This document shows, in pieces, positions 8,878-30,188 of a DNA stretch of 64,000 bases (position 1 is the first letter of the stretch; every line of letters starts with the position of its first letter). The stretch comes from Candidatus Poribacteria bacterium (lineage in GTDB: Bacteria > Poribacteria > WGA-4E > WGA-3G). The stretch is taken from NCBI GenBank assembly GCA_963665235.2, contig CAXXLX010000001.1, positions 1,792,001-1,856,000 of the forward strand. The letters are read 5' to 3'. The translations under genes and the position numbers were made by a program. The notes beneath the pieces were generated by a model. That model did no database searches and was not told the origin of the DNA. It saw only the letters and a program-made list of their open reading frames with translations.

Positions 8878-8999
8878 TCATTTATGACAAATTAGACAAG
8901 GCATCTCATCGTCCTCATCATCATGGACATCGGTGAGGATCTCTTGGGTTTCGCAGCTTTCTTAAATGCCATCGCCTTTTCGGCGTTTGCTTTAATCTG
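8878..8999 (-). pseudogene. Degenerate copy of the 3' end of the PAPS-reductase (sspD-like) gene
   Basis: Encodes QIKANAEKAMAFKKAAKP/(small deletion)/ILTDVHDDEDDEMPCLICHK*, matching the C-terminus of 23251..24087. Confidence 0.9.
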
Positions 9000-9067
9000 A
9001 CCTAATATGTGTCCTTTTCCACAGTCCGTTTTTTGGAGTCTTAATCGTTACTACACCCTAAAATTTA

Positions 9068-9096
9068 ATTATACTACACTTGTGCAAAAAAGTCAA
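9068..9096 (-). promoter_or_regulatory. sigma70-type promoter
   Basis: TTGACT-17 bp-TATAAT on the minus strand. Confidence 0.75.
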
Positions 9097-9563
9097 AAAA
9101 TATTTTTACAAGGGTGTGTAAAGTTTTTGTACTTATGTTACATCTTTTTTTTCAGAATCGCGGATTAGCGCAGAGGACACGGATTGCACGGATTATCTCT
9201 CTTGTCAGAATCGCGGATTAGCGCAGAGGACGCGGAGAACGCGGATTTTAAGATGCGTAACAAGCCAAGTTTAGTGATTATAAGCTGACTATCGTCTAAG
9301 TCCGAGGGTTTGTAACCATGACTCCAAACGGTGTGGGACCGCCTACAGGGTGTGTAAAGTTTTTGTACAATGTTATGCAGCTTTTGTGTACAGAGCGATG
9401 TTCGTAGCAGCACACTTCATTGCCCATCAGAGACCCGTTCGTAGTAGGGCAATTTATTGCCCGTTCTTCCGTTCAGTATTCGGGCAAACAGCCCGTTCTT
9501 CGTAGGGAAACCATTTATTGCCCGTTCAAAACTTTACAAATACAATAGAACGCCTTACCGTTA

Positions 9564-9993
9564 CTATAGTTTGGACAATATCTATGAACCTGATGCCCCA
9601 TTCGCAAAGCATTTCACATTTTCCTCACTGTTGCACACACATACAAAGCGGAGAAAATAGGCTCCAATGTGCCAAAGCGCAGCCCCAGCGGGACGATATG
9701 TTTATAGAAACACACAACGCCAACGCCATCAGCCCCGTAGGGGCGATATGTTTATAGAAACACACAACGCCTCACCTCTTAACCCCAGCGGGGCGATATG
9801 GTTATTGGGAAGACAATGCTGTCCGCCACAAGTCAAAAAAACACATACCCTTAATCACAAAACCTTGAGGCATACATATCTTAAAATCCGCGTTAATCCG
9901 CGATAATCCGCGATTTGCGGCGTATTCGCCCAAATGCGACGTGTATTCAGACAACACCGCGAATCCAAACTCACAAAATTGTCCAAAGTTTAG
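9564..9993. mobile_element. MITE family C (imperfect TIR CTATAGTTTGGACAAT / ATTGTCCAAAGTTTAG) with GCCCC-N3-GGGGC REP-like units
   Basis: Both ends shared with 51532-52227; no ORF of recognisable function. Confidence 0.7.
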
Positions 9994-10009
9994 TAATAGT
10001 ATCACACAT

Positions 10010-10123
10010 CAGGACTTACGCAAATTTAGCAGGACCATCGTAGGGGCGAGGTCACCTCGCCCGCTAGGTCTCACTTTAAATCCCATTATCTATGGACTTT
10101 ATCAACGCGCTGCGTAAGTCCTG
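10010..10123. mobile_element. MITE family D (TIR CAGGACTTACGCA) with internal GTAG-type hairpin
   Basis: CAGGACTTACGCA...TGCGTAAGTCCTG; siblings at 36725-36862 and 63575-63689. Confidence 0.8.
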
Positions 10124-11410
10124 CTCATAAGAAAATGGGAAGGCGCGTTACCTTCCCATTTTTTGATGTTCACTGTTTCCGAGGCTAAATATCCAGCAAG
10201 TCATTCAGGGAATCAAAGACTTTTTGGAAGCACTCAAGTTCTGGGTCGGTCAGATGGGTTTTAAGTGCATCAACGTTCGCACTGAAGTAGCGAGCGGGCC
10301 GGTAATGGTTGAACTTTGCTCCGTTTGGAAGTGGGTTATTCTTAAAGTAATCTTCAAGGCGACAAACAATACGCGGGGAACCCTGTTGTAGATTGTTCAC
10401 GCCCAAAGATGTCTCAAATTCCTCATTTACTAACCTCAGATAAAAATCAGGAGCAAACATATCCTCGATATCGGCTTCAGTGTTTCCTACAAAGTCAGCA
10501 TAAGTGAGGACCTGATTCTTCTTAAGTAATTTCTTCTTGTAAAGGCCTTCAATGCTTTGCCGATCTTTCTTCTGATAGTCAATGAGAGTCGCAATATTCA
10601 AATTCGTATTGGCCCCGATCAGGGCAACGAAGGTTGGGACTTTATCAGATCCTCCAACAGGCGTGATGGTCCAATCGTTACTGAGACCAGCTTTACCCTG
10701 TTGTTGGAGAAGGGCGGACATGATTTGGATATAAAGTAGATCTGATACCCCTTCTACAACAAGATTGTTCGGGCCAATAAAAAGCGTCTGATAAATTTCG
10801 TAACCGAGAGCACCTTGAAGTGGAAAAAGACTGTCCGGTATAGCTTCAAGCACTTCGGTGATAACTTTAGTCCCCTGCTGCTCATCCGAGAGGTTATCAG
10901 AGTCTGACTCAATGCTCAAGTCTTGCACAATTCGCACACGATCGAAATGCTTGGGGTCAACCATAAAGGGCGAATGGGTTGTATAGATGAGTTGATGATG
11001 AGGCGCGAGTTCTTCTTCAAAGTAGCGCAGAAGATCGCCTTGAGCTTTTGCATGAAGCGAGAGGCCTGGCTCATCCAAAAGCAGTATGAGATTTTGATTT
11101 TCTGAACGAAGTTTTTGATACCAAGCGAGAAAAGAGAAAAACCAAACAAAGCCGCGCGATCGAGTTCCAAGTAGAGTGCTGACGTAGTGTTTGGTGTCTT
11201 CTACACGGCCCCAGATATTTGTTCCGCTAGTCATATTTTGTGGATCTTCAGAGTGTGCTGGGCGAATGTCAAACTTCATACGAAGATGTTTGTTCTGAGA
11301 CCAATAAGGGAGCACATTTTCTGTGAGGGAGTTTCCAGCAGCTTCAAGTCGCGCAATTAGTGATTCTGTCTCAGGTGTTTTAATGATCTGGTCAAGTTTT
11401 AAACCTGCTA

Positions 11411-12641
11411 GTGCTAAGTCATGCGGTAATTGACGGATAAAGTTTTTTGGGTTTTATACGTGCATCGTCAGTTGTAAACCGCCAACTTATATCGGCACGT
11501 TGTTCGTTTCTTCGGTCTTGCCACGCCCGGATCTCCTTCTTTAGGGTCTCTTGGTCAGCAATACGCTTTGAAAGACAACCTCGAGATAGCACGGAGAGTT
11601 CAATCTCCGCCATATTCAACCAACTGCCATGCTTCGGGGTATAGTGAAACTCAAGTTTTTTCGCAATACGCCGGGCTTCATCGGGTTGAAAAGCTTTATA
11701 CAGCGAAGCGGTTTTATGTGTGTTGAGATTGTCACAAACGAGTGTAATCTTTTCAGCCTCCGGAAAATGGACATCAACTAAGTCTCGGCAAATGATGGCA
11801 AAGTCAATGCTTGTGCGTCTGTCGGTTACCTCAACGTGCCGAAATCCGTCAAAGGGTGCGAAAATCATGAACAGATTACTCACACCATTTCGCTGGTATT
11901 CATAATCATATCGGAGCGGAGCCCCTTCAACCATTGGTAAAGGACTTCGGGTTTCTTTGATGTGTTGTTTACTTGTTTCATCAACACAAACTACAGGATT
12001 TTTGGTATCTTGTGGACGCTGATAGACTTCGAGAACATCCTCCATCGCCGCAACGAACGCCGCATCTGCTTCCGGGGGAATACACCATTGCTTTTTTAGC
12101 CAAGGTCTAAGTTCGTTTTTTTTAGGACCCGGCGGATGGTCTCGTGAGATATGCTATCAAAATGTTCCAACTCTACCATCTTTTCCGCTAACAGTCGAAG
12201 CGTCCATCTCGCACACCCCTCTGGAGGTTCCGAGCAAACTAAAGCGATTAGATGCGCTTCTTTTTCACCATCAAACTTTTTGCCTGGGGTGTCTGAACGC
12301 TTCTTCGGGTTGAGTGCCGCGGTGAGATTTTCAAGCACAAAGGCTTTACGGGTTCTCTCAATAGTCGGTATTGAGACTTCAACAGCCTCTTTTATTTTAT
12401 CATCGGTGTAGGCGGGTACGAACTCGCCTTCATCGGCTTTCAAGAGGATCCTGGCACGGGTAAGTTTGCGTGCCGATTCTTTCCCAGAAGATATCAGAGT
12501 AATGAGATAATCTCGTTGGGACTTATCAAGCTTGACTTGATATTGTTTTGCTGCCATAATAGACTCCAAGTTATGAATAATCTTTTGAGTCTCATTATAC
12601 CATTTTTATCAATAACTATCAAACAGCTGTTGACTAAACAC
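11411..12641 (-). mobile_element. IS630-family insertion sequence
   Basis: TA target duplication (11409-11410 / 12642-12643); imperfect IRs GTGCTAAGTCA / TGACTAAACAC. Confidence 0.92.
11419..12569 (-). CDS. IS630 transposase in two ORFs (HTH 12096..12569; DDE 11419..12045), probably joined by a -1 frameshift
   Basis: VCVDET, DNLNTH, WLNMAEIE DDE motifs; A8 slippery run near 12116-12123. Confidence 0.9.
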
Positions 12642-13305
12642 TAGATGAATTAGCCCAAGTAGGGGATGGTCTGATTCATTAAGCGTATTATTTGCCTCTC
12701 GTTTTATGAGGCCCTCAATGTTTTCATGCCCCTTCAGTTGGTAGTACTCGTCGAAATAGAGGAACTTAGGAACGCGGGCAGTGAGATATTTCAAACCGGA
12801 CTCAGAGTTTGTACTTAAGCCATAGTATGTATTTTCGTCAGCGTTTACACTTAAGTCCTTGTCTACGAATTCTCTATTACTTATATATGAACTATTATAG
12901 ATAAGTTTGTTTGAGTATCCTTTATGAAGGGTAATGTTTGATAGTTTATCTTCAGGATATTCGGGTCCACAAAGTTCTTTAAGAGTATCTATCTCCTCGG
13001 AATCAAGTGTGTATGTGGCTTGGACAACTTCTGCTGGAGGTTCACCATCATCAATAGTCCTCTCGTAAGTCCTCAAGGTGCGGCGCGGATAGTCGACTAT
13101 AGCGGTGAAGTCTCCATCTTCCTCGTTGATTGGATTCAAACGGTAGAGTGCCTTTAGTAGGGCAGTCTTGCCTGATTCATTTTTCCCTACCAAGCAGGTA
13201 ACATCATCAATACTAAATTCAGTTGAGTCTTGAATGCTCTGAAAATTCGTAATACGGACCTTAGTAAGTTTCATGTTTTACCTCCAACTAACTCTGTTTT
13301 GCGGA

Positions 13306-14196
13306 TTACAATTCCCGGTAATCCCCTTTAAACACTTCTTTGACGTGCCAACCTATGAATTCTAATTCCGGGTAATAGGACTGTCTTTGTGGAAAGTTGA
13401 TTTTTTGCCCGTGGAAATCCATAAGCCACTCCTTAAAACCCTTTGTGCCATGTGCATCATCCGATACAAGAATTTCTAGATGTTTGGACAATGTAAAGGC
13501 TCCAAGGTCAAATAGTTTATGATGTAAGATACAAAGGGCTAATCCATTCACTTCTTTGTTAGGCCCACCATGTGATTTCCATTTGATATGAGCGGCTTCT
13601 AAGGCAAGAGGCATGGTTCCCAATTTTACATCAAAACCACAGACAGCACATTTATATTCGTAGGCTCTGATAACATTTATTCGGAAGTTGGATGGCCATA
13701 TTCTTGTGTCAAAACCTTGAAGTGGAAATTCAATACCAACGGCTTGTAAAATATCTTCGTGCAGTGAGGCAGTGAAGTGAGTGTTTAATAGGATCCGGAC
13801 TATTTCAAATGTCAGTTCAGAGTCATTTTGAAGATGCTCGAAAACAGTTTCGTTGAAACCTCCAGAAACATTATAGTTCCTTAAATCGGTTATGTATGCG
13901 TCCCCACTGGATGTTTGGCGAATTCTATTGGCATCGGATACTTCCCAAATTCCATCATTTTGTAGCCGCCAAAACGGGAATTGAGGGTTATAACGATCTC
14001 GTCTAGGCCCAAACTCTCTCAGTAGATTTTCGAGATTTTCCTCTATATCATCAGTATAAGAAATAAGTCTATCTTCACCCCGTAACAATTTGCCAATGGC
14101 GTACAGGATCAACAACGGTTTATGTGGTGCTCTTTCGTCTCCGCTTATCGACTGTCGCAGCGTTTGAAATCTCTGAAGAATTTGGTCCCTGGTCAT
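13306..14196 (-). CDS. SBD-HNH endonuclease (phosphorothioated-DNA-binding restriction endonuclease-like)
   Basis: N-terminal APHKPLLIL and PFWRLQNDGIW (sulfur-binding-domain-like); CAVCG...EAAHIK...NGLALCILHHKLFDLG HNH. Confidence 0.85.
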   Translation of the reverse strand: MTRDQILQRFQTLRQSISGDERAPHKPLLILYAIGKLLRGEDRLISYTDDIEENLENLLREFGPRRDRYNPQFPFWRLQNDGIWEVSDANRIRQTSSGDAYITDLRNYNVSGGFNETVFEHLQNDSELTFEIVRILLNTHFTASLHEDILQAVGIEFPLQGFDTRIWPSNFRINVIRAYEYKCAVCGFDVKLGTMPLALEAAHIKWKSHGGPNKEVNGLALCILHHKLFDLGAFTLSKHLEILVSDDAHGTKGFKEWLMDFHGQKINFPQRQSYYPELEFIGWHVKEVFKGDYREL

Positions 14197-14212: not shown

Positions 14213-14332
14213 TTATTTATGACAAATTAGGCATAGTTCCTCATCGCCCTCATCATTGTGGACATCGGAATTTTTATCAGGCGACGATTCGGTTTCGCCT
14301 TTTTCCGGATTTGCCTTAACCTAACCTAGCAT
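14213..14332 (-). pseudogene. Degenerate copy of the sspD-like 3' end with its own RBS and ATG
   Basis: GAGGA-ATG then MLG*VKANPEK...DVHNDEGDEELCLICHK*. Confidence 0.85.
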
Positions 14333-14371
14333 GTGTCCTCTTCCGTAGGTTGATACTATACATCTTACGAA

Positions 14372-14400
14372 ATTATACCACATATATGCAAAAGAGTCAA
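14372..14400 (-). promoter_or_regulatory. sigma70-type promoter (extended -10)
   Basis: TTGACT-17 bp-TATAAT with TG; homologous to 9068-9096. Confidence 0.75.
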
Positions 14401-14416: not shown

Positions 14417-15155
14417 GGGTGTGTAAAGTTTTTGTACAAAACCGGTGTAAATGTTACACTTTTGACACAAAGTGTAACATTTACTTCTCAGTGCTGCAGT
14501 CGCACAAACTCACGCCACGTCTATGTTTTCAAGCGGTTTCGACCCGTCTTTTTCACAACACAAAAAAAATGAAGTGTGTCATTTCGACCACCGGTTTTCG
14601 TTTATCAGTTCTGCCTACTTTTCTTACCGATGTGTCTGCTATTTTTCTCTGCCGCTCCGGTGTAAATGTTACACTTTTGACACAAAGTGTAACATTCGCT
14701 TCTCGGTGCTGCAGTCGCACAAACTCACGCTACGTCTATGTTTTCAAGCGATTTACCCCTATCTTTTTCGCAACACAAAAAAAACAAAATGTGTCATTTC
14801 AACCGCAGATTTCAGGTATCAGTTCTGCCTACTTTTCTTATCGTTCTGCCTCCTATTTTTTGTGCTATTTGTGTGCAAATGTTACACTTTCGACACAAAA
14901 TGTAACATTTGGTTCTCGGTGCTGAATGTGCCCAAACGCCTGACCCATCTATGTTTGTCTGCCGTTTACACCCCCCCTTGGACGATTTTCAAAAAAAAGA
15001 AATGTGACACTTTCGCTATCGATGTCTGGTCAGGTGAGTTGCAAACCGTGCCGCTTTCCTCCGAAAAATGTTTTGGTTCTCTGTTATGTTAGTTGCAAAT
15101 GGTTTGATTTTTCTTCATAAAAAATATCGCAGACGTACAAAAACTTTACACACCC
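14417..15155. mobile_element. MITE family B (TIR GGGTGTGTAAAGTTTTTGTAC) with internal ~220-bp tandem repeats
   Basis: 21-bp TIR; TTTTACAA on both flanks (likely TSD); first ~200 bp nearly identical to 57365-57590. Confidence 0.8.
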
Positions 15156-15348: not shown

Positions 15349-16434
15349 TCAACTTAACGCTTGCTCCAGTTTTGCCCCAGTACTTTCAGGCGGCAGCCTA
15401 CGAATCATGTCATCTGCCATAGCTTTTCCGCCAACTTCCCCAGTCCTGCCTTTGTATTCTCCATCCTTACGCCAGTCTATTCCGGACACAGCTTCGACGA
15501 GCCGCTTAACGTTGTCCCAATTCATACCCATCTCCTCGCTATAACTACGCGAAAAAATGTGTGCCCCTGTATGCGCCCACGCTATGAAACCTGTTAACTC
15601 AAGCAGTTTATACTTGAAGGCATACCTTGGGCTGCCCTTTATTTCGGGATTATCGAGTTTCTCAATATCCGACCATTCCTCATAAAGCTGGTCAGCAATT
15701 ATCGTCCAAAACCGGGACATGAATTCAATCTTTTGACTAACATCTAAGTCTTGAACAGCCCCAATAGAAAACAAGCGTTTAACCTGCTTTTCTACACTAT
15801 TAAGATTGAAAAGATGCATGCGCTGCATGCTAGTACGGGTAATCCTTCCCTTAAATAGACTGTCGGATTCTTCGTTGAGCCCCCACCCAACTTGCACTTC
15901 ATCTGTATCTTCTAGATATGCAGTCAGTGCCTTAGGCACTCCCTTTTGGGAGTTATTGACGACGACAAACTCCTGCTTTTCCTGCTCAAGAGTGAGATCA
16001 GGCAAAAGGATGAAGGAGATGTCACGTACATCGTCTTCGGATTCATACAAATCCACAAAACCACCAAGACGATGCTGCCCATCAACAATAGCTGCCCGCG
16101 CTTGGATGATAAGCCGCCCCGAATCTTGTTCATGTCCGCCGGGTTCAAATTGCCAATTTCCGCGTCCAGAAAGAAGGACCGGCGGCACCACGCTGTTTGG
16201 GTTCTCCTTAAGGAACCGGGCGAAGGCTCTCATTCGCGATAGTGAGCCGGGCCGCTGGTAACCTTCTTCTACAACCTCATTAAGACATGTCTTGGAACTG
16301 GGTTCAATGACCGGAACAAAAGTCACGTTCTTAACCTTATCTGAAGGAATTGTCCCAAATAGGTACTTCTGGTCCCCTTGAGTCTTCTGGATGACTCCGT
16401 TAATTTCGCCAATTCCGTTAATCTCGTTGTTCAT
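15349..16434 (-). CDS. DGQHR domain protein (DndB-like)
   Basis: GYQR and IVDGQHRL motifs; F..VNNSQKGV. Confidence 0.88.
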   Translation of the reverse strand: MNNEINGIGEINGVIQKTQGDQKYLFGTIPSDKVKNVTFVPVIEPSSKTCLNEVVEEGYQRPGSLSRMRAFARFLKENPNSVVPPVLLSGRGNWQFEPGGHEQDSGRLIIQARAAIVDGQHRLGGFVDLYESEDDVRDISFILLPDLTLEQEKQEFVVVNNSQKGVPKALTAYLEDTDEVQVGWGLNEESDSLFKGRITRTSMQRMHLFNLNSVEKQVKRLFSIGAVQDLDVSQKIEFMSRFWTIIADQLYEEWSDIEKLDNPEIKGSPRYAFKYKLLELTGFIAWAHTGAHIFSRSYSEEMGMNWDNVKRLVEAVSGIDWRKDGEYKGRTGEVGGKAMADDMIRRLPPESTGAKLEQALS

Positions 16435-16437
16435 TAT

Positions 16438-17802
16438 TTAACTCCTTTCAACCCGAAGGTTTGGAATATACGATAGTACAACTACAAAAAAAGATTCGTC
16501 GTCTTGATACTCAAATAACCATTCATTCCTTTTACGTAAGTTTGCAGCGAATCCGCTATGGCGGAAATCCCAGCAGATTACGAGGTTTACTTGATTATGA
16601 GGATGGTTATGATCAAAAAAGCTCTCAAAATAATGCTCCACTTCGATTGCTACGAACATAGATTGAACGTCAACTTCTCTTATTTGGTATGACGCTATTG
16701 CATCTATTCCTGATCGGGCCGTGTATTCCCATAAGCAAAATTCATGAAAAGGAAGTGCATTAAGGGCTTCTAGTTTGGCTAACAAAACAAGCACCTCATT
16801 CTCATTTGAAGGTACGAGCATCACCGGTTTATCATTAAAGATAATTCTGTCTCCTTTCCGTGCTCGTTCCTGCCTTTGCTTCAGGCTATCCGCGGCTCTA
16901 CTTTGTCGTTCCCACTGAATTTTTTGCTCATAGTCCTTGAAACAATTTGATTCTGTAACTAAAATTAGAGCACTTCTAACAGAATCAATCAATTTGTTAA
17001 TAAGCTCACTTGTGCGATCTAGCTGCACTGCGGTCTGCCTTAAGTTTTCGCTGCTGACTTCCACAATCCAATGTGCACTTTCAGTATCACTTGTCAGCCA
17101 GTTCTTCTGTTCCGGGACAAGTGGGCCGGACCTGGTGTATATCTCATCATCTTTAAGCAATGGAGAAGTATAAAAATTAGCCTGCCCTATATGTTTCCCA
17201 TTTGTATCGGACAAATTTACCTGGGTAGTGAAACTGTCTGTGGCTCCCAATTTAATTTTGTATCGACTTTCCGGGTGGATCAATTGCTCATTCCCAAACA
17301 CCTGCCAACGAATGGAGTACTCTGATTCTGCAAAATCTGACGACCCGAACCAAGTGTTTTCCAAAAAGTAGGAATGAACAGCGGAATCTTTTTGGATTTC
17401 TGATGGTACAGAGTTGGACTGCCAAAATCCCTCTAATCTTAAGAGAAAATTTTCTTTCAAATCCGAATGCTGAAGTGTCATTAAATTTAAGGCTGGTGGA
17501 TTCTTGAGAAGCTCGGTAGTATTTCCAGTGAAATATTTTCCCATTTGACGCAAATAGAATGCATCAGCAAAAAAAATTTCTTCCAACGAACCATCAAGTA
17601 ATATCAGAGCATCCTCGTCAGAAACAGTGGTATCACAGTTGATTTTCACGGTTGTTCGGCCCAGACCATCAAAAGTGAATTTAAAGGTCCAGCAGCATGG
17701 CGGAAAGCGATTGACGAGTTCAGCTATCCGTAGTGGATTAGAATTATTATTGAGATGCTCAGAAATTTCAGACCAAGTTCGCTTTAGATTTAACTCAATC
17801 AT
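16438..17802 (-). CDS. Hypothetical protein with putative C-terminal PD-(D/E)XK-like nuclease
   Basis: PSNENEV...GIDAI...IEVE...HNHP...VICWD resembles restriction-fold domains. Confidence 0.55.
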   Translation of the reverse strand: MIELNLKRTWSEISEHLNNNSNPLRIAELVNRFPPCCWTFKFTFDGLGRTTVKINCDTTVSDEDALILLDGSLEEIFFADAFYLRQMGKYFTGNTTELLKNPPALNLMTLQHSDLKENFLLRLEGFWQSNSVPSEIQKDSAVHSYFLENTWFGSSDFAESEYSIRWQVFGNEQLIHPESRYKIKLGATDSFTTQVNLSDTNGKHIGQANFYTSPLLKDDEIYTRSGPLVPEQKNWLTSDTESAHWIVEVSSENLRQTAVQLDRTSELINKLIDSVRSALILVTESNCFKDYEQKIQWERQSRAADSLKQRQERARKGDRIIFNDKPVMLVPSNENEVLVLLAKLEALNALPFHEFCLWEYTARSGIDAIASYQIREVDVQSMFVAIEVEHYFESFFDHNHPHNQVNLVICWDFRHSGFAANLRKRNEWLFEYQDDESFFVVVLSYIPNLRVERS

Positions 17803-18086
17803 TCCAACTCCTCAATCTCGTATCTTGCCATCGAATTCCCGCTCTCTTTACGAATACGTAACTTAATTCCCTTAAAGAGGTCTGAGCTTTTCAGCAGTTC
17901 TTCGAGCGGTTCACTTAACGACTTCGCTGATATGTAAAATAGATACTCAACACTTGTTCTAATCTTCTGGACATGCAGAATAGGAACATACCCCTTAAAT
18001 GTTAAGACGACATTGGGTTCATATATGATTTCAAGTTCTATCTAGCCTATGCCGACTTTTAGTGAGCTCGGATTTTCATTTGACAT
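17799..18086 (-). pseudogene. ~95-codon small gene with a premature TAG at codon 15 (absent from the ORF track)
   Basis: GGAGGG RBS, ATG at 18086, TAG at 18042-18044, then open to a TGA overlapping the ATG of 16438..17802. Confidence 0.7.
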
Positions 18087-18194
18087 AGCTATACCCTCCG
18101 ATTTTATAAACAGGCCTTGTACAAGAGGAGACTCACAGGATTGAACGCAACCGTTATTACAAACGACATCATCTCCTGCCTACACATCCCATTG

Positions 18195-20848: not shown

Positions 20849-21107
20849 GAGATTTCTCCTTTTCTATTTCGGATATGTTCAGCTTCTCCATGAGAAAATC
20901 GCCTGCCTTGTAGCATATCTCGTTTACTTGTTTCTGAATATGTGTGCTTTGCACAAGATTTTTCTTCTCTGCCTGAAGGATTTCGACTATAACATCAACA
21001 AGTTTTTTCTCATATCCTTCATACCTCTCCTCAAGGAATTCACACTCCCTGAGAATAAGGTTTGCCATCTTTTGCGGGTTGAATGACATAATTCCCCCTT
21101 TATCCAT
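20823..21107 (-). CDS. Small helical protein associated with the CxC ATPase
   Basis: Overlaps both neighbours (operonic); ~90 aa. Confidence 0.65.
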   Translation of the reverse strand: MDKGGIMSFNPQKMANLILRECEFLEERYEGYEKKLVDVIVEILQAEKKNLVQSTHIQKQVNEICYKAGDFLMEKLNISEIEKEKSHETHQRGI

Positions 21108-23217
21108 TGATTGCTTTAATCAACCGATCGATAGTGCTCAATGGCCCATCAGGTCTGGCATAATTCGTTGCAAGGCTAGCAAATGCTTGCACTCGCTTGA
21201 GTTCTGATCGAATCAAAGTCCGAGCCTTACTGTCAAGATTATCCAGGTCCGGCGGTAAAGCGATAAAGTCGTGAATTTCGCTGTGCGTTTTGTCAGTTTC
21301 ACGACATGTCCGGAGAAGCCTTCCACGACGCTGGACCCACTGTCGTTCTACTGTTGTGCTCGCTAGGATGAACGCCCTTTCAATCTGTGGTATGTTGACT
21401 CCTTCATCAAGCACACGTTTTGCAGTCAGAATTCCCAATGTTCCATCTTGAAAGGATTGGATAATCTGCGTCGTTTTTTTATGTTTACTTGTTTCATCAC
21501 AAGTGAGTTGATGGAAAAGCACCCCGCTGTCTTTCAGTAAAGCGTTGACCGCTTCAAGTTGCTGCGGTGCCTTGTCAGAGGCATAAATCAACGTGTATCG
21601 GAGGTTCCGCAAACCTTCATGGTTCAAAACCTCTTTTAGCGCGTCAATTTTATTTTTCGCGTTCTCCAGAATCGCGCGCCGGGCTACGAGTAGCTTGGTC
21701 AGATACTCATCAGGGTCATCGTCCTTCTGTTGCCAGGCATTTTTCTGGATTTTCTCTGTGATAGCATACCATTTCTCCATCTCGCTCTCCGTGAGTTCCA
21801 CAGAGTGGACATAGTACTCGTATTCAACGAGGCATCGCCCGATGGCCTCCTCAAGCGTGAATTGAAAAACGATAGGCCCGAAAAACGCAAATAACTGCTC
21901 CGTTCCCAGCTCATCATACTGACGAATAGGCGTTGCTGACAACCCCAACCTATAATCGAAAAAAGAGGGCGGTTCCGTTATGAATCCCTCGCTGCCGAGG
22001 TTGTGTACTTCGTCTGCAATGAGCAAGGTATTACAGCTAAACTTTTCAAGTTCGGTTTTAAACTCACTCTTGCAAAGCGTCTTGTGAGACACCACGACAA
22101 TCTCAACGTCGCTTACTTCTGCTTGGAATCGGTGTTTAATGCGCTTGAGTTCATGTGCCCATCCACTTGCACCGCCTGCTTTAGTAAGGTTGACCGCGGT
22201 GAGTCCAAAAGGTTCAATTTCATCACACCACTGTTGAATGAGTGGAATATACGGTGCCGCCACAACGATAAGAAGCGGTTTGTGCGTTTTGTAGAGTCTG
22301 TGTGCACATATCATAGCGGCAATTGTCTTGCCAGATCCAGTTGCCATTTCCAAAACACCTTGATATCCAGCCTCACACCACGCACTGACCGCTCTACCTT
22401 GATGTTCAAACGGCCCCTCCTCAAATTGAAGTTCCGAAGGTATAGCAAATTCTGGACGTGATACTCTGAAATTGTTAGTTGCCTCGCCTATTTGCATCGT
22501 CCCTACCGCTTTTTTGTAGAGTTTACCGAGTTCATCCTCTGTTGGCGGCGTATCTGAACGGTAATTTTTCAATAGATTTTCCTCAATGGCTTTAGGCATC
22601 GGAATGACAATGCAATTCTCATCCTGATTTGCCCAGAGCTGTTTGAACTCTTCACAAAATTTTTCCGTAATATAGTGCTGGTTGGCATCTTCCCACGATT
22701 TAGAAATGGAAATCTGCTCAATATTTTTCTGAACCCCAGCGTACGTCATATTACTGGAACCATGCGCTGCTATCACGTCATCCCCTTCGCGAAAGAGCCA
22801 GACTTTTGGATGGAACAAGGCATCTTGCATCAACGCAATTTTGATTTCAATGCGTCCGTTGTGCAATAACCACGTAAGACATTTCAAGGTATGTTGCGCG
22901 ACAGCGGATTCTGTGACAACAAAACCCTCTAAAGCGGTACTAGCGATATCTTCTGGCGCAGCTACGCCTTCCACGATTGCCTCCCTATCTTCCGTTCGGA
23001 GTAGTGGACTAATAATCAAGCGTAAACTTCCGTTTGAGCAGTTTACGAAGGTTGCTAAGCCTGGGGCGAGCGACACAAGGATTTCGCTTGAAAAGAAACC
23101 CATCATGCAATTAATTTGAGTGGCAGCGCGGAAGCACGGAATAAGTACGTCCTCTACCACCGGCTCTCTTGGGAGCATATAGAGTGGTCGAATATCAGGC
23201 ATTGCCCGGAGCATCAT
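21100..23217 (-). CDS. PLD-nuclease/SF2 helicase fusion (phosphorothioation-associated restriction enzyme-like)
   Basis: FHPKVW...HGSSNMT PLD motif; MATGSGKT, DEVH, LSATP, LDEGVNIP, QRRGRLLR helicase motifs. Confidence 0.88.
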   Translation of the reverse strand: MMLRAMPDIRPLYMLPREPVVEDVLIPCFRAATQINCMMGFFSSEILVSLAPGLATFVNCSNGSLRLIISPLLRTEDREAIVEGVAAPEDIASTALEGFVVTESAVAQHTLKCLTWLLHNGRIEIKIALMQDALFHPKVWLFREGDDVIAAHGSSNMTYAGVQKNIEQISISKSWEDANQHYITEKFCEEFKQLWANQDENCIVIPMPKAIEENLLKNYRSDTPPTEDELGKLYKKAVGTMQIGEATNNFRVSRPEFAIPSELQFEEGPFEHQGRAVSAWCEAGYQGVLEMATGSGKTIAAMICAHRLYKTHKPLLIVVAAPYIPLIQQWCDEIEPFGLTAVNLTKAGGASGWAHELKRIKHRFQAEVSDVEIVVVSHKTLCKSEFKTELEKFSCNTLLIADEVHNLGSEGFITEPPSFFDYRLGLSATPIRQYDELGTEQLFAFFGPIVFQFTLEEAIGRCLVEYEYYVHSVELTESEMEKWYAITEKIQKNAWQQKDDDPDEYLTKLLVARRAILENAKNKIDALKEVLNHEGLRNLRYTLIYASDKAPQQLEAVNALLKDSGVLFHQLTCDETSKHKKTTQIIQSFQDGTLGILTAKRVLDEGVNIPQIERAFILASTTVERQWVQRRGRLLRTCRETDKTHSEIHDFIALPPDLDNLDSKARTLIRSELKRVQAFASLATNYARPDGPLSTIDRLIKAING

Positions 23218-23250: not shown

Positions 23251-24087
23251 CTATTTATGGCAAATCAGGCACGGTTCCTCGTCGTCCTCGTCGTCGTGGA
23301 CATCGGTGAGGATTTCTATGAGTCGACGATTCGGTTTCGCCGTTTTCTTAGATGCTATCGCCTTTTCAGCGTTTGCCTTAATCTGCGCTATTCGTTCGGG
23401 TTGCGACAACTCTTCTAAACTTTCACCTTGACACCATGTAAACCTTTCGCCTGTTTCCGGATTAAATTTCTCGTAATCCTTGGCGAGTTCGAAAAGGTCG
23501 GGATGCTGCTCTAAAAGCCCTACCCACTCAGATTTGCGTTGGAAGAAGCAGAAATAACATCCGGAACGCGTCCGCCACTGGTAATAATCGGGCAAGCCAA
23601 GGCCACTTTCCTCCAGAATTCGGTAGACATCCTCTTTAGTAATGCCATCCTCTTTGAAGGGATATTTCGGTTCAATATTACCCAGGCCGGAGGTCGTTGG
23701 AGGCTTATAGCCGATTCGGTCTTCGTCGGCGCGGATAGCGATGTAGTGATACGCTTTGTCATCGCCGACGTATTCCTCAAAAGGTCTTATTTTGAGGTTA
23801 ACAGTGCACCAACGGACTTGCGGCGATGGCAGCAGACCTCCCAAAAGCGTCAACCAGTGATCGAAATCTCGGTTTTTGTGGGAATCGGTATCCATGTTGA
23901 GGCGTTCAATCTTTTTGCCGAGAAATGCCTCTAACCGGTCGAGAAATTCGTAGGTCTCCGGCAATTCCTTACCGGTATCAGAAAAGAAGTATTCCATCTG
24001 TGGTACTCTGTCTCGCATGTAAACTGCAAGTGCGGAGCTATCTTTTCCGCCGGAAAGCCCAAGGAGATGCCGTATTTTTTGTGCCAT
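23251..24087 (-). CDS. sspD: PAPS reductase family protein (SspD/DndC-like)
   Basis: SGGKDS PP-loop; RWCTVNLKI; RSGCYFCFFQ; C-terminal CLICHK. Confidence 0.85.
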   Translation of the reverse strand: MAQKIRHLLGLSGGKDSSALAVYMRDRVPQMEYFFSDTGKELPETYEFLDRLEAFLGKKIERLNMDTDSHKNRDFDHWLTLLGGLLPSPQVRWCTVNLKIRPFEEYVGDDKAYHYIAIRADEDRIGYKPPTTSGLGNIEPKYPFKEDGITKEDVYRILEESGLGLPDYYQWRTRSGCYFCFFQRKSEWVGLLEQHPDLFELAKDYEKFNPETGERFTWCQGESLEELSQPERIAQIKANAEKAIASKKTAKPNRRLIEILTDVHDDEDDEEPCLICHK

Positions 24088-24098: not shown

Positions 24099-27000
24099 CT
24101 ATTTTTCAAGTTCCTGCATCCATTTTTGTGAAATTCGCGCCAAAATAGCGATGTGAAGTTCAGGATTATCGGCGACGTTATGAGTATCAAAAATCTTCCT
24201 GATTTCAGTCGCTATCTGCGTAGCCTGTTCATCAGCGGTTGATGGTAAGGTTACAACGCGTTCCTGCTCAGACTGGTTTGGTGCGGTGATACCTACGCGA
24301 ATAGGTTCACCCGCTGCCAATTCAGGATGTTTCCGTTTTTCGTAAGAGACCGCTTCAAAATGCCTAAATTTTCTGGCAAGTTGAGAGAGATTGCTTTCGA
24401 ATCGTGCTTTATCCAAGTCTACCCACGACAGAGGTGGTTTTTTAGCGAGATAGGTTGCAATCGCCTCAAGCCAGCTACTAAAATCGTGCCCACCGCTGCA
24501 AACTTGGACTAAAAATCCTTTGAGCTCGGTTTCAACTGCTATTGTTAACAGTGGTTCAGCCCTATCGGCTAATTCAGCACGGAGTTTTTCCCTTGATGGT
24601 GTTAAAGTGAAGGCTTCCACCAGCATCCGCTCTATGGAATTCAGCAAGACCTCGTAAGCCTGTTCTAATTCGGACAAGGCATCTTGTAACGTGTCGAAAA
24701 ATTCTGAAATTAGTTTTGGATTTAATGTCTGCGCGCCAAAAGCAGAAAATCCGAATGCTTCCGGGAGTTGTTTAAAGAGGAGTTCGTCGGGTTCACGTGC
24801 GCTCAGAACAGTTTTACGGAGATTTTTCGCATTATCACTCAATTCTTGTGTTGACAGAGTGTACTTCGGAAGTTGAGCAATAGCGCGTATGAGCGGGGTG
24901 ACGACAGTCAACAAATCTGGGTTTTCGGTTTCCACCGGTTGGTTGAGCATCTGTAGAAGTTGCGCCAACAGATCAGCACGGATACCTGACATCCGAAATC
25001 GCTTCAGTTCAAATTGTTGTGGTGCCTTAAGCAGCCGTTCAAAGACAGGCATTGACCACTCCGCTACGAAGGAGCCGTTTTCATAGAGGGCAATTTCTGT
25101 TTTGTAGTGGAGTATCACCGCACATAAGAGAATAGGCAGGGGACCACGCCGCACACCGTAAGGGGGTGCCATCAGGTGTTCATAGAGTTCCGAAATGGGC
25201 TGTCGTTCACCTTCACATTTTTCAAGAAAAACCTCAATTGCTTTCCACGTCGGTGCCATTCTGTTTGCGTCAGCGGTTTCCGGCGGGTGAAATCCACGGT
25301 ACCTTGAAACCTCACGATGTATTCCGGTATTCCGTAAGAGAGAGCGGTAGATGCTCATTTCGGCAGGATACCCAGTAATACCGAGGTTTTTCCTATCTCC
25401 ATTTTCAAGCATTCGTTGAATTAATTTCTTTCGAGCGGTCGTTGCAGCCCCGGAGATTTTACGCCGATTAATCAGTTCGTTTTGAATGCAAGGGGTTTTG
25501 TGATAAACTGCATCACAGATATTTGACAGGTATGCGTTTCTTGTCCCTTGAGAGTCAATAGTCCCTACAGATTGTCCTTTATGATACCATATACAAGTGT
25601 CTTTCTTAGTCCCACCAAAAATTGCTGTTAATCTATGAGATATTTCTTGTTCCGCTTGACGCTGCTGGACTGAAAGTTCATCTCTTGCCACTGGGTCGCC
25701 TTCTAATTCCGGGGTGTTTTCGGAAACCCAACGTAGACTGGCGAGTTGCGTAACAGTCTCTTGTAGTGTGCCAATAGCGCGTGGAATTGCAATCAATACC
25801 TCTTTGCGTTCTGCGAGTTTGGAACTGCTCGCCTTTTCGGTGAGCTGCTTGACTTCATGTTCGTTTGCGGGCAATGCATAAAGCACAAGGCCATCTGCAT
25901 CCTCAGGGGGCTCCTCTAAATCGGCATCAAAATTTTCGAGCTCGGTATACCGGACGACAAAGTATCGCAAAGTACCCGTCTCAAATAGGTGTCTTCGTGC
26001 AACGAGCGGGCGCGTCGGCAAATAACGTGCCAGCTCGGCGGCGAGAGCACCTTGCATGTCAATATGCCTTTCCGCTTCGCGGAGTTTTGCCTCAATGTCA
26101 ATATCGCTCCCTTCCCAAAGCGCGTAAGCCTTATTGTAGCGGCGATAGATGACAATTGAACGTTTTCTTAGCATAGTGAGTGCTTCCTCAAATTCACTGA
26201 TAAACCCCTCTGTCCTAACATCTAAGGCGGAACGGAGGAGTTGCCCTGAGGCTTTCAGATTCGGCAGGACTTCACCAACAATATTAAGGACACCAATCGT
26301 CTTAATCAATTGAATCGGCACAGGAGAGGGGTCTGGTAGTCGGTCTAATGCTGATTCAATTTCTGCCCATTTCTTGCCGTTGCGTGAGGCGTACAACCGA
26401 TGTTCCATGTTAGTCTTAAGATAGTCGTAAAGGTTGGCGATTGAAAACAGCGGCGAAAAGGTTCCATTGCAATTTTGGGTAGAGAGGAAGTCTTGTAGGC
26501 CATAAGGTTCACTTGAGCTGAGAAAAGCGAAGAGCGAACGTTCGTTTTGCGCGAATCGTCGGAAAATTGGATTTATAACAAGGGCGACTATTGGGTGCAG
26601 GGGCAGACAATTTTTCAGAAGTTCGCCAAACTCGTCCTCGGTAAGTTGGCTCGGTTTAAGGTCGAATTCAATAGGCAAGGATAAATTTTCTTCCTTATCC
26701 TCTGAAGTCCTTTCGATAGCAGAACCGATGAGGCGAAGAATCTGTTCTGTGGGTTCTATAAAAGCTATATCTTCAAACCGTCCCTGTACCTTTGCCCACT
26801 CCTCCTGTTGTGATTTTGCTAATTTGTTAGCGTATTGTTCAAAGGCTTGGTGCAGAATCGTCAGAAAAAGGAGAGGTGTCTGCTTACTTCGCGTAGCCAA
26901 TTCAGCAAGGGTTTGTAGCACGAACACATCGCCTTGTGCAGGCTCTTGTGCGGCGTACTCAAGGAACTTTCCAAGTTCATCAATTACCAATAACAAACCG

Positions 27001-27590
27001 TGTCCACCCTTTTTCTTGATAGCACGCGTTGCTGATTCAAAAAGATATGTAATTTCAGACGCTTGCAGCGGCGTATCCGTTCACATCGATTTTTCAAGAG
27101 TTTCCCTGATTTTTCGCTGAAGTGAACTATTAGAAGGGACTCCGAAAGTCCTGAGTCCATTCTCCAAACCGCGCAGTAGGGCAGTCGAGAGTGGGGCACG
27201 TTCACCAGAGATAAGCACAGGACAGAAATCTGATAGCGGTTGTCCATTCCCATTTGTACTTGTGAATCTTTCGTATAACGAAACGTCGCCGCCCTTCAAC
27301 AAATTTAGAGCTTGTTGGGTTGTCGAAGTGCTGGGATCTCCGAGCAGCTTCGCGGCAAAAAGCGCGAATGCCGATTTTCCTGAGCCATAGGGCCCCGTAA
27401 TCGACCACGCCCTTGATGTCGCTCCATTTTCAAGCGTTGAAATGACACGCGATAACATCTCCCGAGCTGTAACGGTCAGGACGTACCCATCTAAGACGTT
27501 CCTTGTATCATAGAAATCGCGTTCCAGATGAACCGAGCGGTGGAAACGTCCTTTAACCTGATAGAGATGTGACAAAGGAATATTATCCAT
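24099..27590 (-). pseudogene. sspC: Large ATP-binding protein (SspC/BrxC-like) with a single in-frame TGA at 27081-27083
   Basis: GPYGSGKS (Walker A) upstream and LLVIDELGK (Walker B) downstream are in the same frame: ...EKSM*TDTPLQASE... Confidence 0.8.
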
Positions 27591-28509
27591 AATACCTTTC
27601 TAAAAGTTCCGTTGAGTCTAAATCTTTGTGTCTATAAACCTGTTTTAAACCAGCCGTTTCATCGTATTGCAACGCACCTTCGGTGAGTTCGTTGAGGGAT
27701 TCAAGGTAAGTAGTCATTGTGTCCTCGTCTAATCTAAAAATTCGGCCCGGACTTAATGGTGCGTACATCAGTTCTGAAAACGGTAATTCATTTCTTTTAT
27801 GGAAACTTGCATCCCAAAAGGCGACAAGTGTCGAGGCAAACATTTCAACCGGCAGCGTCTCTTTTTCGCCGCGTTGGAACTCATATCCGTTGTTTTCTGG
27901 CAATTCTGTGATTAAATTGAGTTCAACAAGTGGACAGTCAAAACTCTCCTCAACGATTGTAGTGGTGTGACGTGACTGACAATAGGTTCGGATAAAACAA
28001 CGGATATCCCGTTGAAGTGTATTTTCAGAGACAGGACGCATAGCTGGTTTCTGTTGTCGTGCCCATTCGGACAATTGTTTTTTAAATATGTCAGGTGTGA
28101 ATTGATTTTCTCTGAAAACGTTAAATGCCCAATACCACAAGGTTGCATGATTCATATTAGTCGCAATCTTCCAGTGAATCAACCATAACGTGGCGGGGTC
28201 GTCAAGGTACGGGTCAAATCCGTTGTCGTCGTTAAAAATGTCTCTGCCGAGCGGCGTGAAAACGAATCGCCCACGTTCACGGCCGTCCGCTTTGATCAGC
28301 CCAGCAACACTACACCAGTGCCGGATGGAGGCCACCATATTTTTCCCCACACCTAAAGTAACGGAGACGTTCTCTGCCGAAAAGACAGTCGGATCTTCTC
28401 TGACAGCATCGACCCCCTTCTTCAGCCATGTGTACCGAAACGGAAAAGTTTGGTGGCCGGAGAAGGATAGATTAATTATCTGTGGTGAAGTGCTATACAC
28501 AGTGTTCAA
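27583..28509 (-). CDS. sspB: DUF4007 family protein (SspB-like)
   Basis: FSGHQTFPFRYTWLKKG, LGVGKNMVASIRHW, DPYL...TLWLIHW, CPLVELNLI, ETAGL motifs; GGAGGT RBS. Confidence 0.88.
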   Translation of the reverse strand: MNTVYSTSPQIINLSFSGHQTFPFRYTWLKKGVDAVREDPTVFSAENVSVTLGVGKNMVASIRHWCSVAGLIKADGRERGRFVFTPLGRDIFNDDNGFDPYLDDPATLWLIHWKIATNMNHATLWYWAFNVFRENQFTPDIFKKQLSEWARQQKPAMRPVSENTLQRDIRCFIRTYCQSRHTTTIVEESFDCPLVELNLITELPENNGYEFQRGEKETLPVEMFASTLVAFWDASFHKRNELPFSELMYAPLSPGRIFRLDEDTMTTYLESLNELTEGALQYDETAGLKQVYRHKDLDSTELLERYYG

Positions 28510-28923
28510 ATCTTACCTCCCAGAAATGGACCGGCCCCCGATGCAAAAAACAACGTAGGCGAAAAAGGGGAGTTTAGATCGAAGGGGTGAATAGTCGGTA
28601 ACGAAAAGTGCCCGCGGCGAGAACCATTGGGCAAAATAGTCCTCGCGCAGGCACAATGATAGTGCAAAATGCCGAGAAAATTTATTTGGTTTTTACTTAA
28701 CAGATGTGGGGTAGAAGGGGGGGGTAAAACGCAATTTCAGTGCCGCAATCCCTGTTGGAGCTTAGCACAGCAAGCGAGCGACACGGACCAATTCCGCCAA
28801 AATGGCAAGCATCCGGGGTGTTTATTCTCTCAATTGGGGTGTTAGCATGTCCATATATCATTAGCGTTCCCTGTGTGTTGCAAAAAGGAGCTGTGTATCG
28901 CGGCGATGTAGTATTATTTTTTA

Positions 28924-28952
28924 ATTATACTACATTTTGACGCGTTTGTCAA
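28924..28952 (-). promoter_or_regulatory. Consensus sigma70 promoter of the sspB operon
   Basis: TTGACA-17 bp-TATAAT. Confidence 0.8.
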
Positions 28953-29013
28953 GTTAAAATTCGTTAGTTCTGCATAGATGTCATGAAAAAATAACGTTAA
29001 GCACCCCGTCATA

Positions 29014-30003
29014 TTACTGTTTCAGAACTTCTTCACGGTGCCACGCCAAAGCATCTTGAGCAGGATAATGTTGTGTGTTTCTAGGTTGCCATATAAGCTT
29101 GTCACGTAATTCGGTTAACATCGAACTCGTTGGCCCTCGCTCGGACATGCAGGGTGAGACAATAATTTGGTATGTTTCACTTAAAGAAATTAATCCAGCG
29201 TCAAAAGCCCAGTGGTGCGATTTGCAGAGAGAAATTCCATTCCGGACATCGTCATTATATGAAACAGAAAACGGAATGATGTGAGCAGCATCAGTCAAGC
29301 TCTCTCCGCTCGATGCACGGACGTGTAATTCACAAACTGCACAGGTGTGTTTGTAGATTTCCATAATCCTCTTGCGGAAACCTGCACTCCGAATTGGAGT
29401 GCCTACTTGAATTGCCTCTGCTTTTTTATGAGATGAAAATGGGCGTCCGGCATCTTCTAGCAATGATTCGCTGTATTCTTCGATGTCCTTTTCAATCTCT
29501 TTTTCCGCGGTTCTTCGTTGTTCTTCAATTACCTTTTCAACTTCATACCTAATATTTGAAAAATAGTGGCTGATAATAGTTTCGCGGAATATTTCCCGAT
29601 ATTCAGGTATAGCTAGTAAAACACAAAGAGGATCATCTAGCTTAGCTGCAGCGTTAACACTAAGAAGTTGATTAGGTGAGGGGGTTGTCCCAGCAGATCT
29701 TGATTGCAGTTTTTGTGGCTTAAGAAACCAGAAACCCTTAGTTTTTAAATGAAAAAACGGATTATTAATACTGGGGTGCCGGTCCTCCGATTCATTTGAT
29801 TTATTGAAAACCTCAATCAGCTCTTCAAAAAAAGAAGATTTATTCTTGTAAATTTCACTAAAGGGAATATTATTTTCGTAGAGTTCACCGCTTTCAATCA
29901 TCTCAATGATTATTAACAAGAGAAACGGTCTGTGAGGGAACTGTCTTTTATCCTGCAAATTCTTAATCTTTTCGATATATTTTTGTAGGACACTGTTAAC
30001 CAT
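29014..30003 (-). CDS. SBD-like + HNH endonuclease
   Basis: PHRPFLLL and PFFHLKTKGFW (SBD-like); CAVC...AAHIIPFS...NGISLCKSHHWAFDAG. Confidence 0.85.
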   Translation of the reverse strand: MVNSVLQKYIEKIKNLQDKRQFPHRPFLLLIIIEMIESGELYENNIPFSEIYKNKSSFFEELIEVFNKSNESEDRHPSINNPFFHLKTKGFWFLKPQKLQSRSAGTTPSPNQLLSVNAAAKLDDPLCVLLAIPEYREIFRETIISHYFSNIRYEVEKVIEEQRRTAEKEIEKDIEEYSESLLEDAGRPFSSHKKAEAIQVGTPIRSAGFRKRIMEIYKHTCAVCELHVRASSGESLTDAAHIIPFSVSYNDDVRNGISLCKSHHWAFDAGLISLSETYQIIVSPCMSERGPTSSMLTELRDKLIWQPRNTQHYPAQDALAWHREEVLKQ

Positions 30004-30041
30004 TTCTCTGTGAGACTCCTATAGTAAGTCCTCTTGTATTC

Positions 30042-30095
30042 TTTATGGCAAATCAAACACGGTTCCTCGTCATCCTCGTCGTGGACATCGTGAGG
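30042..30095 (-). pseudogene. Third degenerate copy of the sspD-like 3' end
   Basis: Encodes DVHDEDDEEPCLICHK. Confidence 0.85.
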
Positions 30096-30159
30096 CTTTC
30101 TGTTTTGGTGATGCCGCCCTTCTATTCTGAATAAATTTTAGCACAAATCTTGCTATTTA

Positions 30160-30188
30160 ATTGTACCATATTTCGACGCATTTATCAA
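30160..30188 (-). promoter_or_regulatory. sigma70-type promoter homologous to the sspB promoter
   Basis: TTGATA-17 bp-TACAAT; spacer aatgcgtcgaaatatgg vs aacgcgtcaaaatgtag at 28930-28946. Confidence 0.65.

Follow-up and report, generated by a model that had tools for sequence, protein, structure and literature searches.

Orphan sspD 3' ends in an integrase-free defence slot of a poribacterium are probably relics of extra sspD genes

We analysed a stretch of 64,000 nucleotides (nt) from the genome of a Candidatus Poribacteria bacterium (assembly GCA_963665235.2, contig CAXXLX010000001.1, positions 1,792,001 to 1,856,000 of the forward strand; hereafter the window, to which all coordinates refer), which holds the DNA sulfur-modification genes sspB, sspC and sspD of the Ssp phosphorothioate defence type together with several sets of putative defence effector genes. 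An initial annotation, made from the window alone, had noticed that the 3' end of sspD, a gene for a phosphoadenosine phosphosulfate (PAPS) reductase-like protein, recurs ahead of different effector genes. It had proposed that this end, here called a tail, is a homology anchor or cis-element for capturing, stacking or swapping effectors without an integrase, and had named as an alternative that repeatedly gained Ssp units had collapsed to a promoter, a tail and an effector. Based on searches of the whole genome and comparisons with related genomes, we favour the alternative: the orphan tails are probably non-coding relics of extra sspD genes in an integrase-free defence slot, and they are not a required cis-element.

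The genes of the island all lie on the minus strand. In its SspBCD core, sspB (27583..28509; DUF4007, PF13182, 305 bits) and sspD (23251..24087; PADLOC SspD 382 bits, full length, 75-91% identical to the sspD genes of relatives) are both recognised, and the last 40-50 codons of this intact sspD are the source sequence of the orphan tails. The initial annotation had called this sspD copy intact, and this holds. The locus as a whole is not fully intact: the ATPase gene sspC (24099..27590) is broken by a single in-frame TGA at 27081-27083, after codon 169; 52 relatives keep one open reading frame (ORF) of ~1160 amino acids (aa) at this place. Judged from the sequence, this TGA would reflect either a modification module that is inactive in this strain or a sequence error. 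A 1-nt deletion variant at 27077 within sspC is listed in contigs of three metagenome runs. sspB is preceded by a promoter-like site with 12 of 12 consensus matches (28924..28952, minus strand) and by a leader of ~400 nt (28510-28923). Relatives have a leader of ~300-450 nt at the same place (loci L114-L133), with a conserved poly-C tract followed by a ACTTTACAAAC-like sequence, and the leader has no match to an Rfam family.

In a DNA search of the whole 5.3-Mb genome, the sspD 3' end turned up exactly four times, in each case on the minus strand and within the island in the window, rather than scattered over the genome (E 1e-76 to 2e-14; next match E 0.39). DNA search, alignment and a profile built from 66 intact sspD tails agree that one copy belongs to the intact gene and three are degenerate, as had been described initially. 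Tail 4 (30042..30101; profile E 9e-13) comprises the last ~17-20 codons, has lost its stop codon and is 93% identical to the intact sspD tail over 41 nt; tail 3 (14213..14335; profile E 7e-19) covers codons ~234-278 with deletions of 20 nt and 4 nt; and tail 2 (8878..9004; profile E 3e-26) covers codons ~233-278 and is frameshifted by a 13-nt deletion, such that two reading frames are needed to follow it. The copies are 74-93% identical, each has its own insertions and deletions, and in each tail of the window the homology to intact sspD ends at the former stop codon. One tail had been reported to possess an ATG and to keep the terminal CLICHK motif in frame; this frame is indeed kept in tail 3, but it is interrupted by a TAG at the fourth codon, three codons past the ATG. 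No tail in the window is an intact mini-ORF, and all are pseudogene pieces.

Each orphan tail lies behind a near-consensus promoter-like site with 17-bp spacing and ahead of a different effector set, in agreement with the initial annotation. The sites are TTGATA-17-TACAAT upstream of tail 4 (30160..30188; 10 of 12 consensus matches), TTGACT-17-TATAAT upstream of tail 3 (14372..14400; 11 of 12) and TTGACT-17-TATAAT upstream of tail 2 (9096-9068; 11 of 12; together with a dispersed 18-mer just upstream, 9068..9129), all on the minus strand, and they are the top scores in their scans. The effector genes start 16-77 nt downstream of the tails, counted from the former sspD stop. The proposed homology between the site ahead of tail 4 and the sspB promoter was borne out (30156-30196 versus 28920-28960; 85% identity over 41 nt, E 1e-6). 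In addition, a 21-nt stretch beside it resembles the -10 region of the sspB promoters of relatives, with a marginal E of 0.02. Together, these matches fit a deletion that reached from just behind the promoter of a unit to approximately codon 260 of its sspD.

Tails 2 and 3 are truncated at the same junction and have in common a head of ~130 nt composed of the dispersed 18-mer, the consensus promoter, a short leader, a ribosome-binding-site-like GGA(A/G)… stretch and ATG or ATA. The reported homology of their promoters stands at 91% identity over 67 nt (9067-9132 versus 14371-14437), with the caveat that 18 of the 67 nt belong to the dispersed repeat. Simple copying of the sspB promoter was rejected as a source for these two sites, which are only 63% identical to it over 41 nt, and BLAST against the sspB upstream regions of 38 relatives gave nothing convincing. 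They fit the promoter ahead of the intact sspD in genome G155 better, partly via the 18-mer, and the head as a whole is collinear with the DNA ahead of this gene. This collinearity appears to fit an internal deletion of sspD codons ~3-232; because the 18 matching bases are part of a dispersed repeat, we regard this evidence as moderate.

The 18-mer occurs 285 times in the genome when up to two mismatches are allowed (reversed control, 0), and seven copies lie in the window (9112-9129, 9348-9365, 14417-14434, 15138-15155, 57365-57382, 58591-58608 and 63693-63710). It is often found in inverted pairs 0.3-1.4 kb apart around repeat-rich inserts and has the look of a miniature inverted-repeat transposable element (MITE). 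One such MITE-like, strandless insert (14417..15155) has inverted 18-mer copies at its ends and is filled with 214-nt tandem repeats. A strict sigma-70-type promoter follows within 75 nt of 63 of the 285 copies, compared to 0.7% of random 75-mers; in 33 of these 63 the offset is 15-17 nt, and the DNA past the 18-mer is mostly unique. These offsets suggest an element end, or a binding site, ~16 nt upstream of the -35 boxes. Modules are separated by spacers full of tandem repeats of 53, 50 and 214 nt (9142-9247, 9680-9829 and 14442-15025), and metagenome contigs break at these repeats.

The effector modules are as follows, all on the minus strand. Directly behind the intact sspD, 33 nt past its stop codon, begins an operon of six genes (15349..23217) encoding a PbeA-like PLD-helicase (21100-23217; PADLOC PbeA 671 bits), a small ORF (20823-21107), a PbeC/DndD-like ATPase (18722-20848; PADLOC PbeC 178 bits), ORFs of 169 aa (18195-18704) and 454 aa (16438-17802), and a DGQHR/DndB-like protein (15349-16434). 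PbeA and PbeC of a Pbe-type restriction module are thus both recognised, the gene order recurs in relatives, and neither the 169-aa nor the 454-aa ORF matches an entry of PADLOC, Pfam or NCBIfam. Behind tail 3 lie an SBD-HNH gene (13306..14196; 296 aa), whose product passes the curated cut-off of the phosphorothioated-DNA-binding restriction endonuclease family NF045808 (335 versus 180 bits), and an ATPase gene (10185..13274) in two pieces, 12609-13274 and 10185-11315, split by an IS630-type element (11419-12569; ORFs with HTH_32 and DDE_3 domains). The ATPase had been called OLD-like; it belongs to AAA_15/AAA_21, and a Toprim domain was not found. An intact SBD-ATPase pair follows sspD at loci L101 and L110. 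Contigs of other runs differ much at 11419-12569, which points to related IS630-type copies elsewhere.

Tail 2 is followed by a MORC/MzaB-like HATPase_c_3 protein (7094-8800) and a 162-aa partner (6609-7097), together 6609..8800. The partner had been described as GIY-YIG-like, a label we do not retain, as it has no Pfam, NCBIfam or PADLOC match and no BLASTP similarity to the GIY-YIG protein of relatives. Beyond this module lies the conserved right flank (3755..6515) with two PhyH-type dioxygenase paralogs and an ankyrin-repeat protein. At the other end of the island, tail 4 heads a 329-aa HNH_2 nuclease (29014..30003; PF13391) that had been assigned to SBD-HNH. Its HNH_2 domain agrees with this assignment but its score of 128 bits stays below the NF045808 cut-off of 180 bits, so that we regard it as a divergent relative. 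Its closest homologs are 35-60% identical, and the nearest relatives in a species-level genome collection are 44-60% identical and lie in metagenome-assembled genomes of uncultured bacteria. None of eight loci with such relatives outside the bacterial family, a small sample, has sspD within 3 kb, and the nuclease gene may have been imported recently to a place behind an sspD. In line with the claim that no integrase is present, no recombinase family was found among the 17 island ORFs scanned, except one IS630-type DDE transposase. None of ten window proteins scanned matched canonical SspE (DUF262 + DUF1524 type), and an Rfam scan of 5000-31000 gave no match. The genome has a G+C content of 47.7%. 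We ruled out a photosynthetic cyanobacterium as its source because it has no phycobilisome or photosynthetic reaction-centre family and only five HIP1 sites.

We compared the window with 60 loci of ~20 kb around intact sspD genes and six special loci (67 loci including the window) and with 20 further loci from two sister families. We defined ORFs by the simple rule of taking the longest and grouped them by single-linkage clustering of BLASTP matches, such that family borders are approximate, and the relatives are not independent samples. Within the bacterial family, 99 of 111 genomes have an sspD match at E <= 0.01, with full-length matches listed for most. As suspected in the initial annotation, a variable slot follows sspD. 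The genes that come first behind 66 intact sspD copies of relatives fall into at least 13 families, namely SBD-HNH (18), a PbeA-type helicase (13), DUF262-HNH (5), a 200-aa protein with a DndB-like partner (5), a 640-aa HATPase protein (family c53; 4), canonical SspE (4; PADLOC 817 bits), GIY-YIG with a DndB-like partner (3), a MORC-like protein (3), an 820-aa HATPase_c_3 protein (3), a type ISP/IIG enzyme (2), TIR-STAND (1), GIY-YIG with a DndB-like partner of another type (1), an IS1595 transposase (1) and singletons (3). No gene is therefore invariant downstream of sspD. pAgo, Dpd-like and further systems sit deeper in the slot, which ends in a conserved flank. In one genus and in the window this flank consists of PhyH, ankyrin and further genes (the PhyH and ankyrin families border the slot in genus g6); in a second genus it consists of another gene set. 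What follows sspD is just as varied in the 20 sister-family loci, with MORC first in five, and in eight of them the gene order is sspD-effectors-sspB-sspC. The slot lies inside the Ssp cluster at the sister loci L145, L146, L152, L155, L159, L162 and L163, and also at L153 and L160. The right end of the window (tail 4, nuclease, sspB, sspC) has the same order as these sister-family clusters. An SBD-HNH gene lies directly upstream of sspB in 12 of 20 upstream-extended family loci, as in the window but with no tail ahead of it. sspD and effectors are present while sspB and sspC are absent at loci L055, L059, L063, L097, L099, L104, L106, L111, L112, L144, L147, L149 and L158, and some loci lacking sspB and sspC retain just the first codons of sspB.

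The border of the slot is exact. When the final 60 nt of sspD were compared together with the 70 nt that follow, all loci were alike up to the sspD stop codon and effector-specific from the first base after it. Each of the three effector types found behind a tail in the window also occurs elsewhere behind an intact sspD, the intergenic sequence being the same. The pair of MORC and its partner does so at loci L068, L081 and L107, and the sequence after tail 2 is like that after the intact sspD at L081. Because the orphan tails keep this effector-specific junction, they are true remains of sspD-effector units.

Orphan tails also exist in relatives. Altogether, we found 15 in 13 genomes, ten of them among the 67 loci (the three of the window plus one each in genomes G094, G081, G144, G079, G070, G105 and G100) and five in the 20 sister-family loci, of which one is weak (E 0.005); a weak profile match at L072 (E 0.33) was left out. 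A whole-genome DNA search of the relatives had given any match in 46 of 65, 34 of 40 and 4 of 5 genomes, mostly one per genome, which is the intact gene, and it missed two tails later found by profile, so that our tail counts are lower bounds. All orphan tails retain the 3' end, reaching profile positions 141-149 of 150, and differ in where they start. The tail in G070 (locus L093, 14005-14067) lies ~2 Mb from the ssp locus and ~650 nt upstream of a gene for a 1412-aa leucine-rich-repeat/lamin-tail-domain protein, not beside a recognisable defence gene.

These loci include a graded series of truncations. Complete or nearly complete tandem units exist in G091, where a second full-length sspD heads a GIY-YIG and DndB-like pair, and in G099, where a second unit begins inside sspC. 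Shorter remains are sspD aa 125-272 joined to a DndB-like gene fragment (G094), sspD 1-51 plus 150-278 (G081), sspB-upstream DNA with sspD aa 2-42 and a tail (G144), a 71-aa PbeA N-terminus fused to a tail (L149) and sspD aa 1-31 ahead of SBD-HNH (L158); at L059, L097, L099 and L112 the start of sspB is fused upstream of an intact sspD and sspC is gone. The remains in G144, G081 and L158 reflect internal deletions that spared both ends of sspD, whereas in G094 and L149 half a gene is fused to a piece of the preceding module. The promoter, sspB start or sspD start retained upstream of several tails marks internal deletions. Other gene scraps at module borders are SBD-HNH 3' ends, DndB-like fragments and PbeA heads. 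The SBD-HNH 3' ends form a second kind of orphan end (G094 3559-3635; L108 10206-10284 and 5437-5511; G079 2503-2578 and 388-450). Two or three modules are held by 21 of 64 loci with an intact sspD. Among the 25 second or later modules (IS1595, family c64, and singleton families not being counted as head families), 19 have no tail, five have a tail and one has a full sspD.

To account for these observations, we suggest that in this bacterial family sspBCD adjoins an integrase-free slot that holds interchangeable defence modules, and that a module normally begins right past the sspD stop codon and would be co-transcribed with sspD. New sspD-effector or whole sspBCD-effector units would have been added beside the resident unit by recombination with DNA of relatives, giving tandem units, and the redundant modification genes would then have been deleted. 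The deletions that survived would be those that spared the effector, its ribosome-binding region and some promoter, and what remains after such deletions would be a promoter, an sspD 3' end and an effector. Accordingly defined, a tail would be what is left between the effector and the point of deletion or joining, without a function of its own, and selection on effector expression would be the reason that the 3' end survives. The heads in the window fit such a history, in that they appear to keep the upstream ends of units: an sspB-type promoter at tail 4 and a promoter, leader, ribosome-binding site and ATG at tails 2 and 3. Because of these heads, two of which (at tails 2 and 3) show collinearity with the beginning of sspD in G155, and because every intermediate stage is seen in relatives, collapse of Ssp units is better supported than the anchor or cis-element that the initial annotation had put forward as its main inference.

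A number of observations weigh against collapse as a sufficient explanation. The route by which the added units entered is one that we infer rather than observe. A strict consensus promoter lies within 220 nt upstream of five of the ten orphan tails, compared to ~0.7% of random 75-mers; this fits selection on effector expression but could also indicate an organised promoter-tail unit. The CLICHK codons are intact in all three tails of the window and every change in them is synonymous, which is expected, though unproven, if the changes predate pseudogenisation. Tails 2 and 3 share one junction but head different effectors, and genomes G030 and G031 have a common junction between c53 and a tail that is followed by PbeA in one and by SBD-HNH in the other, such that simple decay is insufficient without an extra step of duplication, conversion or exchange. 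The same two cases speak for the idea that the sspD 3' end is a homology anchor and that tail-flanked modules are moved by homologous recombination, which would promote capture, stacking and swapping without a recombinase. We consider this idea rather unlikely as the general explanation, even though the homology of loci with different effectors stops exactly at the stop codon, the SBD-HNH and ATPase module of the window is bounded by two copies of the same head, and sspD is nearly unlinked to effector type, implying frequent exchange at or inside sspD: pairs of sspD genes with the same effector are merely 0.011-0.021 more identical than pairs with different effectors, in every 90-nt bin. Moreover, the tails in G079 and G100 have directly on their upstream side the promoter element usually found ahead of flank gene c9, as expected if an incoming fragment of sspD, module and flank start had joined the resident sspD and displaced the old module behind a tail. 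However, 19 of the 25 stacked modules have no tail, so that a tail is not needed for capture or stacking; the linkage to effector type shows no gradient towards the 3' end; perfect matches of the orphan tails of this genome to the intact tail are at most 15-18 nt long, below the ~25 nt usually quoted as the minimum for RecA recombination; the junction of tails 2 and 3 occurs in just one of 176 genomes searched, the window's own; and metagenome contigs offer no usable alternative joint, only joints at repeats with sides of 18-40 nt. Tails may nevertheless sometimes serve as recombination anchors. A broader version, in which the sspD end is the fixed left border of a recombinase-free cassette system, also seems less likely than not: tail-flanked modules would be portable behind any sspD or orphan tail in related strains by ordinary homologous recombination, promoter-bearing heads would keep displaced modules expressed, and the arrays would be working stores of phosphorothioate-linked effectors sharing one modification module.

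That the tail is instead a functional cis-element or mini-gene, serving either as an mRNA leader with a stabilising or regulatory effect or as the source of a short acidic CxxC peptide that works together with the effectors, seems very improbable to us. The consensus promoters, which lie 40-90 nt upstream of five of the ten orphan tails, the intact CLICHK codons and the frame kept from the ATG in tail 3 are what it has in its favour, but the TAG in tail 3, the frameshift in tail 2 and the lost stop codon of tail 4 speak against it, tails vary in sequence and in length from 17 to ~150 codons, most stacked modules lack one, and no Rfam family matches in 5000-31000. Nor is the sspD tail conserved beyond its coding function: pairwise identity of sspD per 90-nt bin is 0.75-0.85 and in the last two bins 0.75-0.80, with no excess nucleotide conservation, synonymous sites vary freely in the last 60 nt, and orphan copies decay. 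Even less credible is that the copies are assembly artefacts made by mis-joining contigs of co-occurring strains. The reported completeness of 92.6% and contamination of 5.65%, as well as the breaks of metagenome contigs at repeats and at 23282-23284 inside the sspD tail, would allow for such errors, but the copies are only 74-93% identical and carry separate insertions and deletions, and the same architecture exists in relatives assembled as single contigs (for example G105, G100, G048, G051, G031 and G047). Contigs from runs X1, X2 and X3 extend from MORC through tail 2 to the promoter ahead of it (8001-9219) and show 0-1 differences; as these runs come from one study and may include the source sample, they are weak support rather than independent proof of the assembly, which is a further reservation about our interpretation. 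On balance, we retain decay of added sspD-containing units as the most probable origin of the tails.

In the open-access library searched, neither orphan ends of sspD nor a variable slot following this gene turned out to be described. The closest precedent is given by the orphan toxin-immunity cassettes of Rhs and CDI (contact-dependent growth inhibition) systems, which sit behind the main rhs or cdiA gene (PMC3967940). According to the cited account, a full-length main gene is followed there by displaced modules that are each headed by a fragment of its conserved part, the orphan module of one strain is the main module of another, and the conserved fragment provides homology for recombination with the main gene (PMC3967940). 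The island described here likewise has modules headed by a fragment of a conserved gene. In Rhs/CDI systems, however, fragment and toxin form one reading frame and the orphans are described as lacking start signals (PMC3967940), whereas here the tails end at the former stop codon and are dead ends of sspD, which is a gene of its own lying upstream; each effector is a complete gene that has its own start, and consensus promoters lie upstream. Recombination between main gene and orphan has been demonstrated by experiment for Rhs, as reported in the same source (PMC3967940), while the present case is known from sequence alone. The island does not resemble an integron or other site-specific cassette system, given that the 17 scanned ORFs include no recombinase and that the tail has no conservation beyond coding constraint.

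The sspBCD core is described with alternative adjoining restriction partners, as SspBCD-SspE and SspBCD-SspFGH, in PMC8092258; among the 2678 sspBCD clusters counted there, sspE adjoins 199 and sspFGH 196, which implies that most restriction partners of sspBCD are unknown. In comparison, at least 13 families take the first place behind sspD in a single bacterial family, canonical SspE in only 4 of 66 cases, and modules are stacked up to three deep with dead sspD ends at some borders. PbeABCD and the ScoMcrA-type SBD-HNH are phosphorothioate-linked nucleases that the cited description places beside Dnd-type modification genes (PMC10853773). Here, such genes follow sspD: 21100-23217 resembles PbeA, 18722-20848 resembles PbeC and 13306-14196 passes NF045808. 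Equivalents of PbeB and PbeD were not recognised, the small ORF 20823-21107 being outside the scan. The core defence hotspots of Pseudomonas aeruginosa (PMC10250203) and the defence-island repertoire of E. coli (PMC10121019) are alike, as far as these sources describe them, in having a fixed site with conserved flanks, different systems in different strains and no dedicated island recombinase. Unlike those hotspots, the slot described here has a defence gene, sspD, for its left flank, its border coincides exactly with the stop codon of this gene, and modules join the sspD operon.

How defence islands gain new content and reshuffle it in the absence of mobile-element genes is an open question. 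This locus constitutes a readable record of the process: its modification core is conserved, its border is precise to a single stop codon, the alternative effectors belong to at least 13 families, and dead gene ends lie at the points of joining or cutting. It also brings forward candidate new Ssp partners that are found directly behind sspD in several genera, namely a MORC-like ATPase with a small partner, GIY-YIG with a DndB-like protein, DUF262-HNH, SBD-HNH and a Pbe-type operon. These candidates matter because most sspBCD clusters are without a known restriction partner in the survey cited above (PMC8092258). If the cassette system outlined above were real, the arrays would be the defence-island counterpart of the orphan toxin arrays of Rhs/CDI systems. 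If the tails are used as anchors, they would represent a simple and general way of building defence arrays; if they are not, the locus would be a well-documented case of reductive decay that leaves effectors behind.

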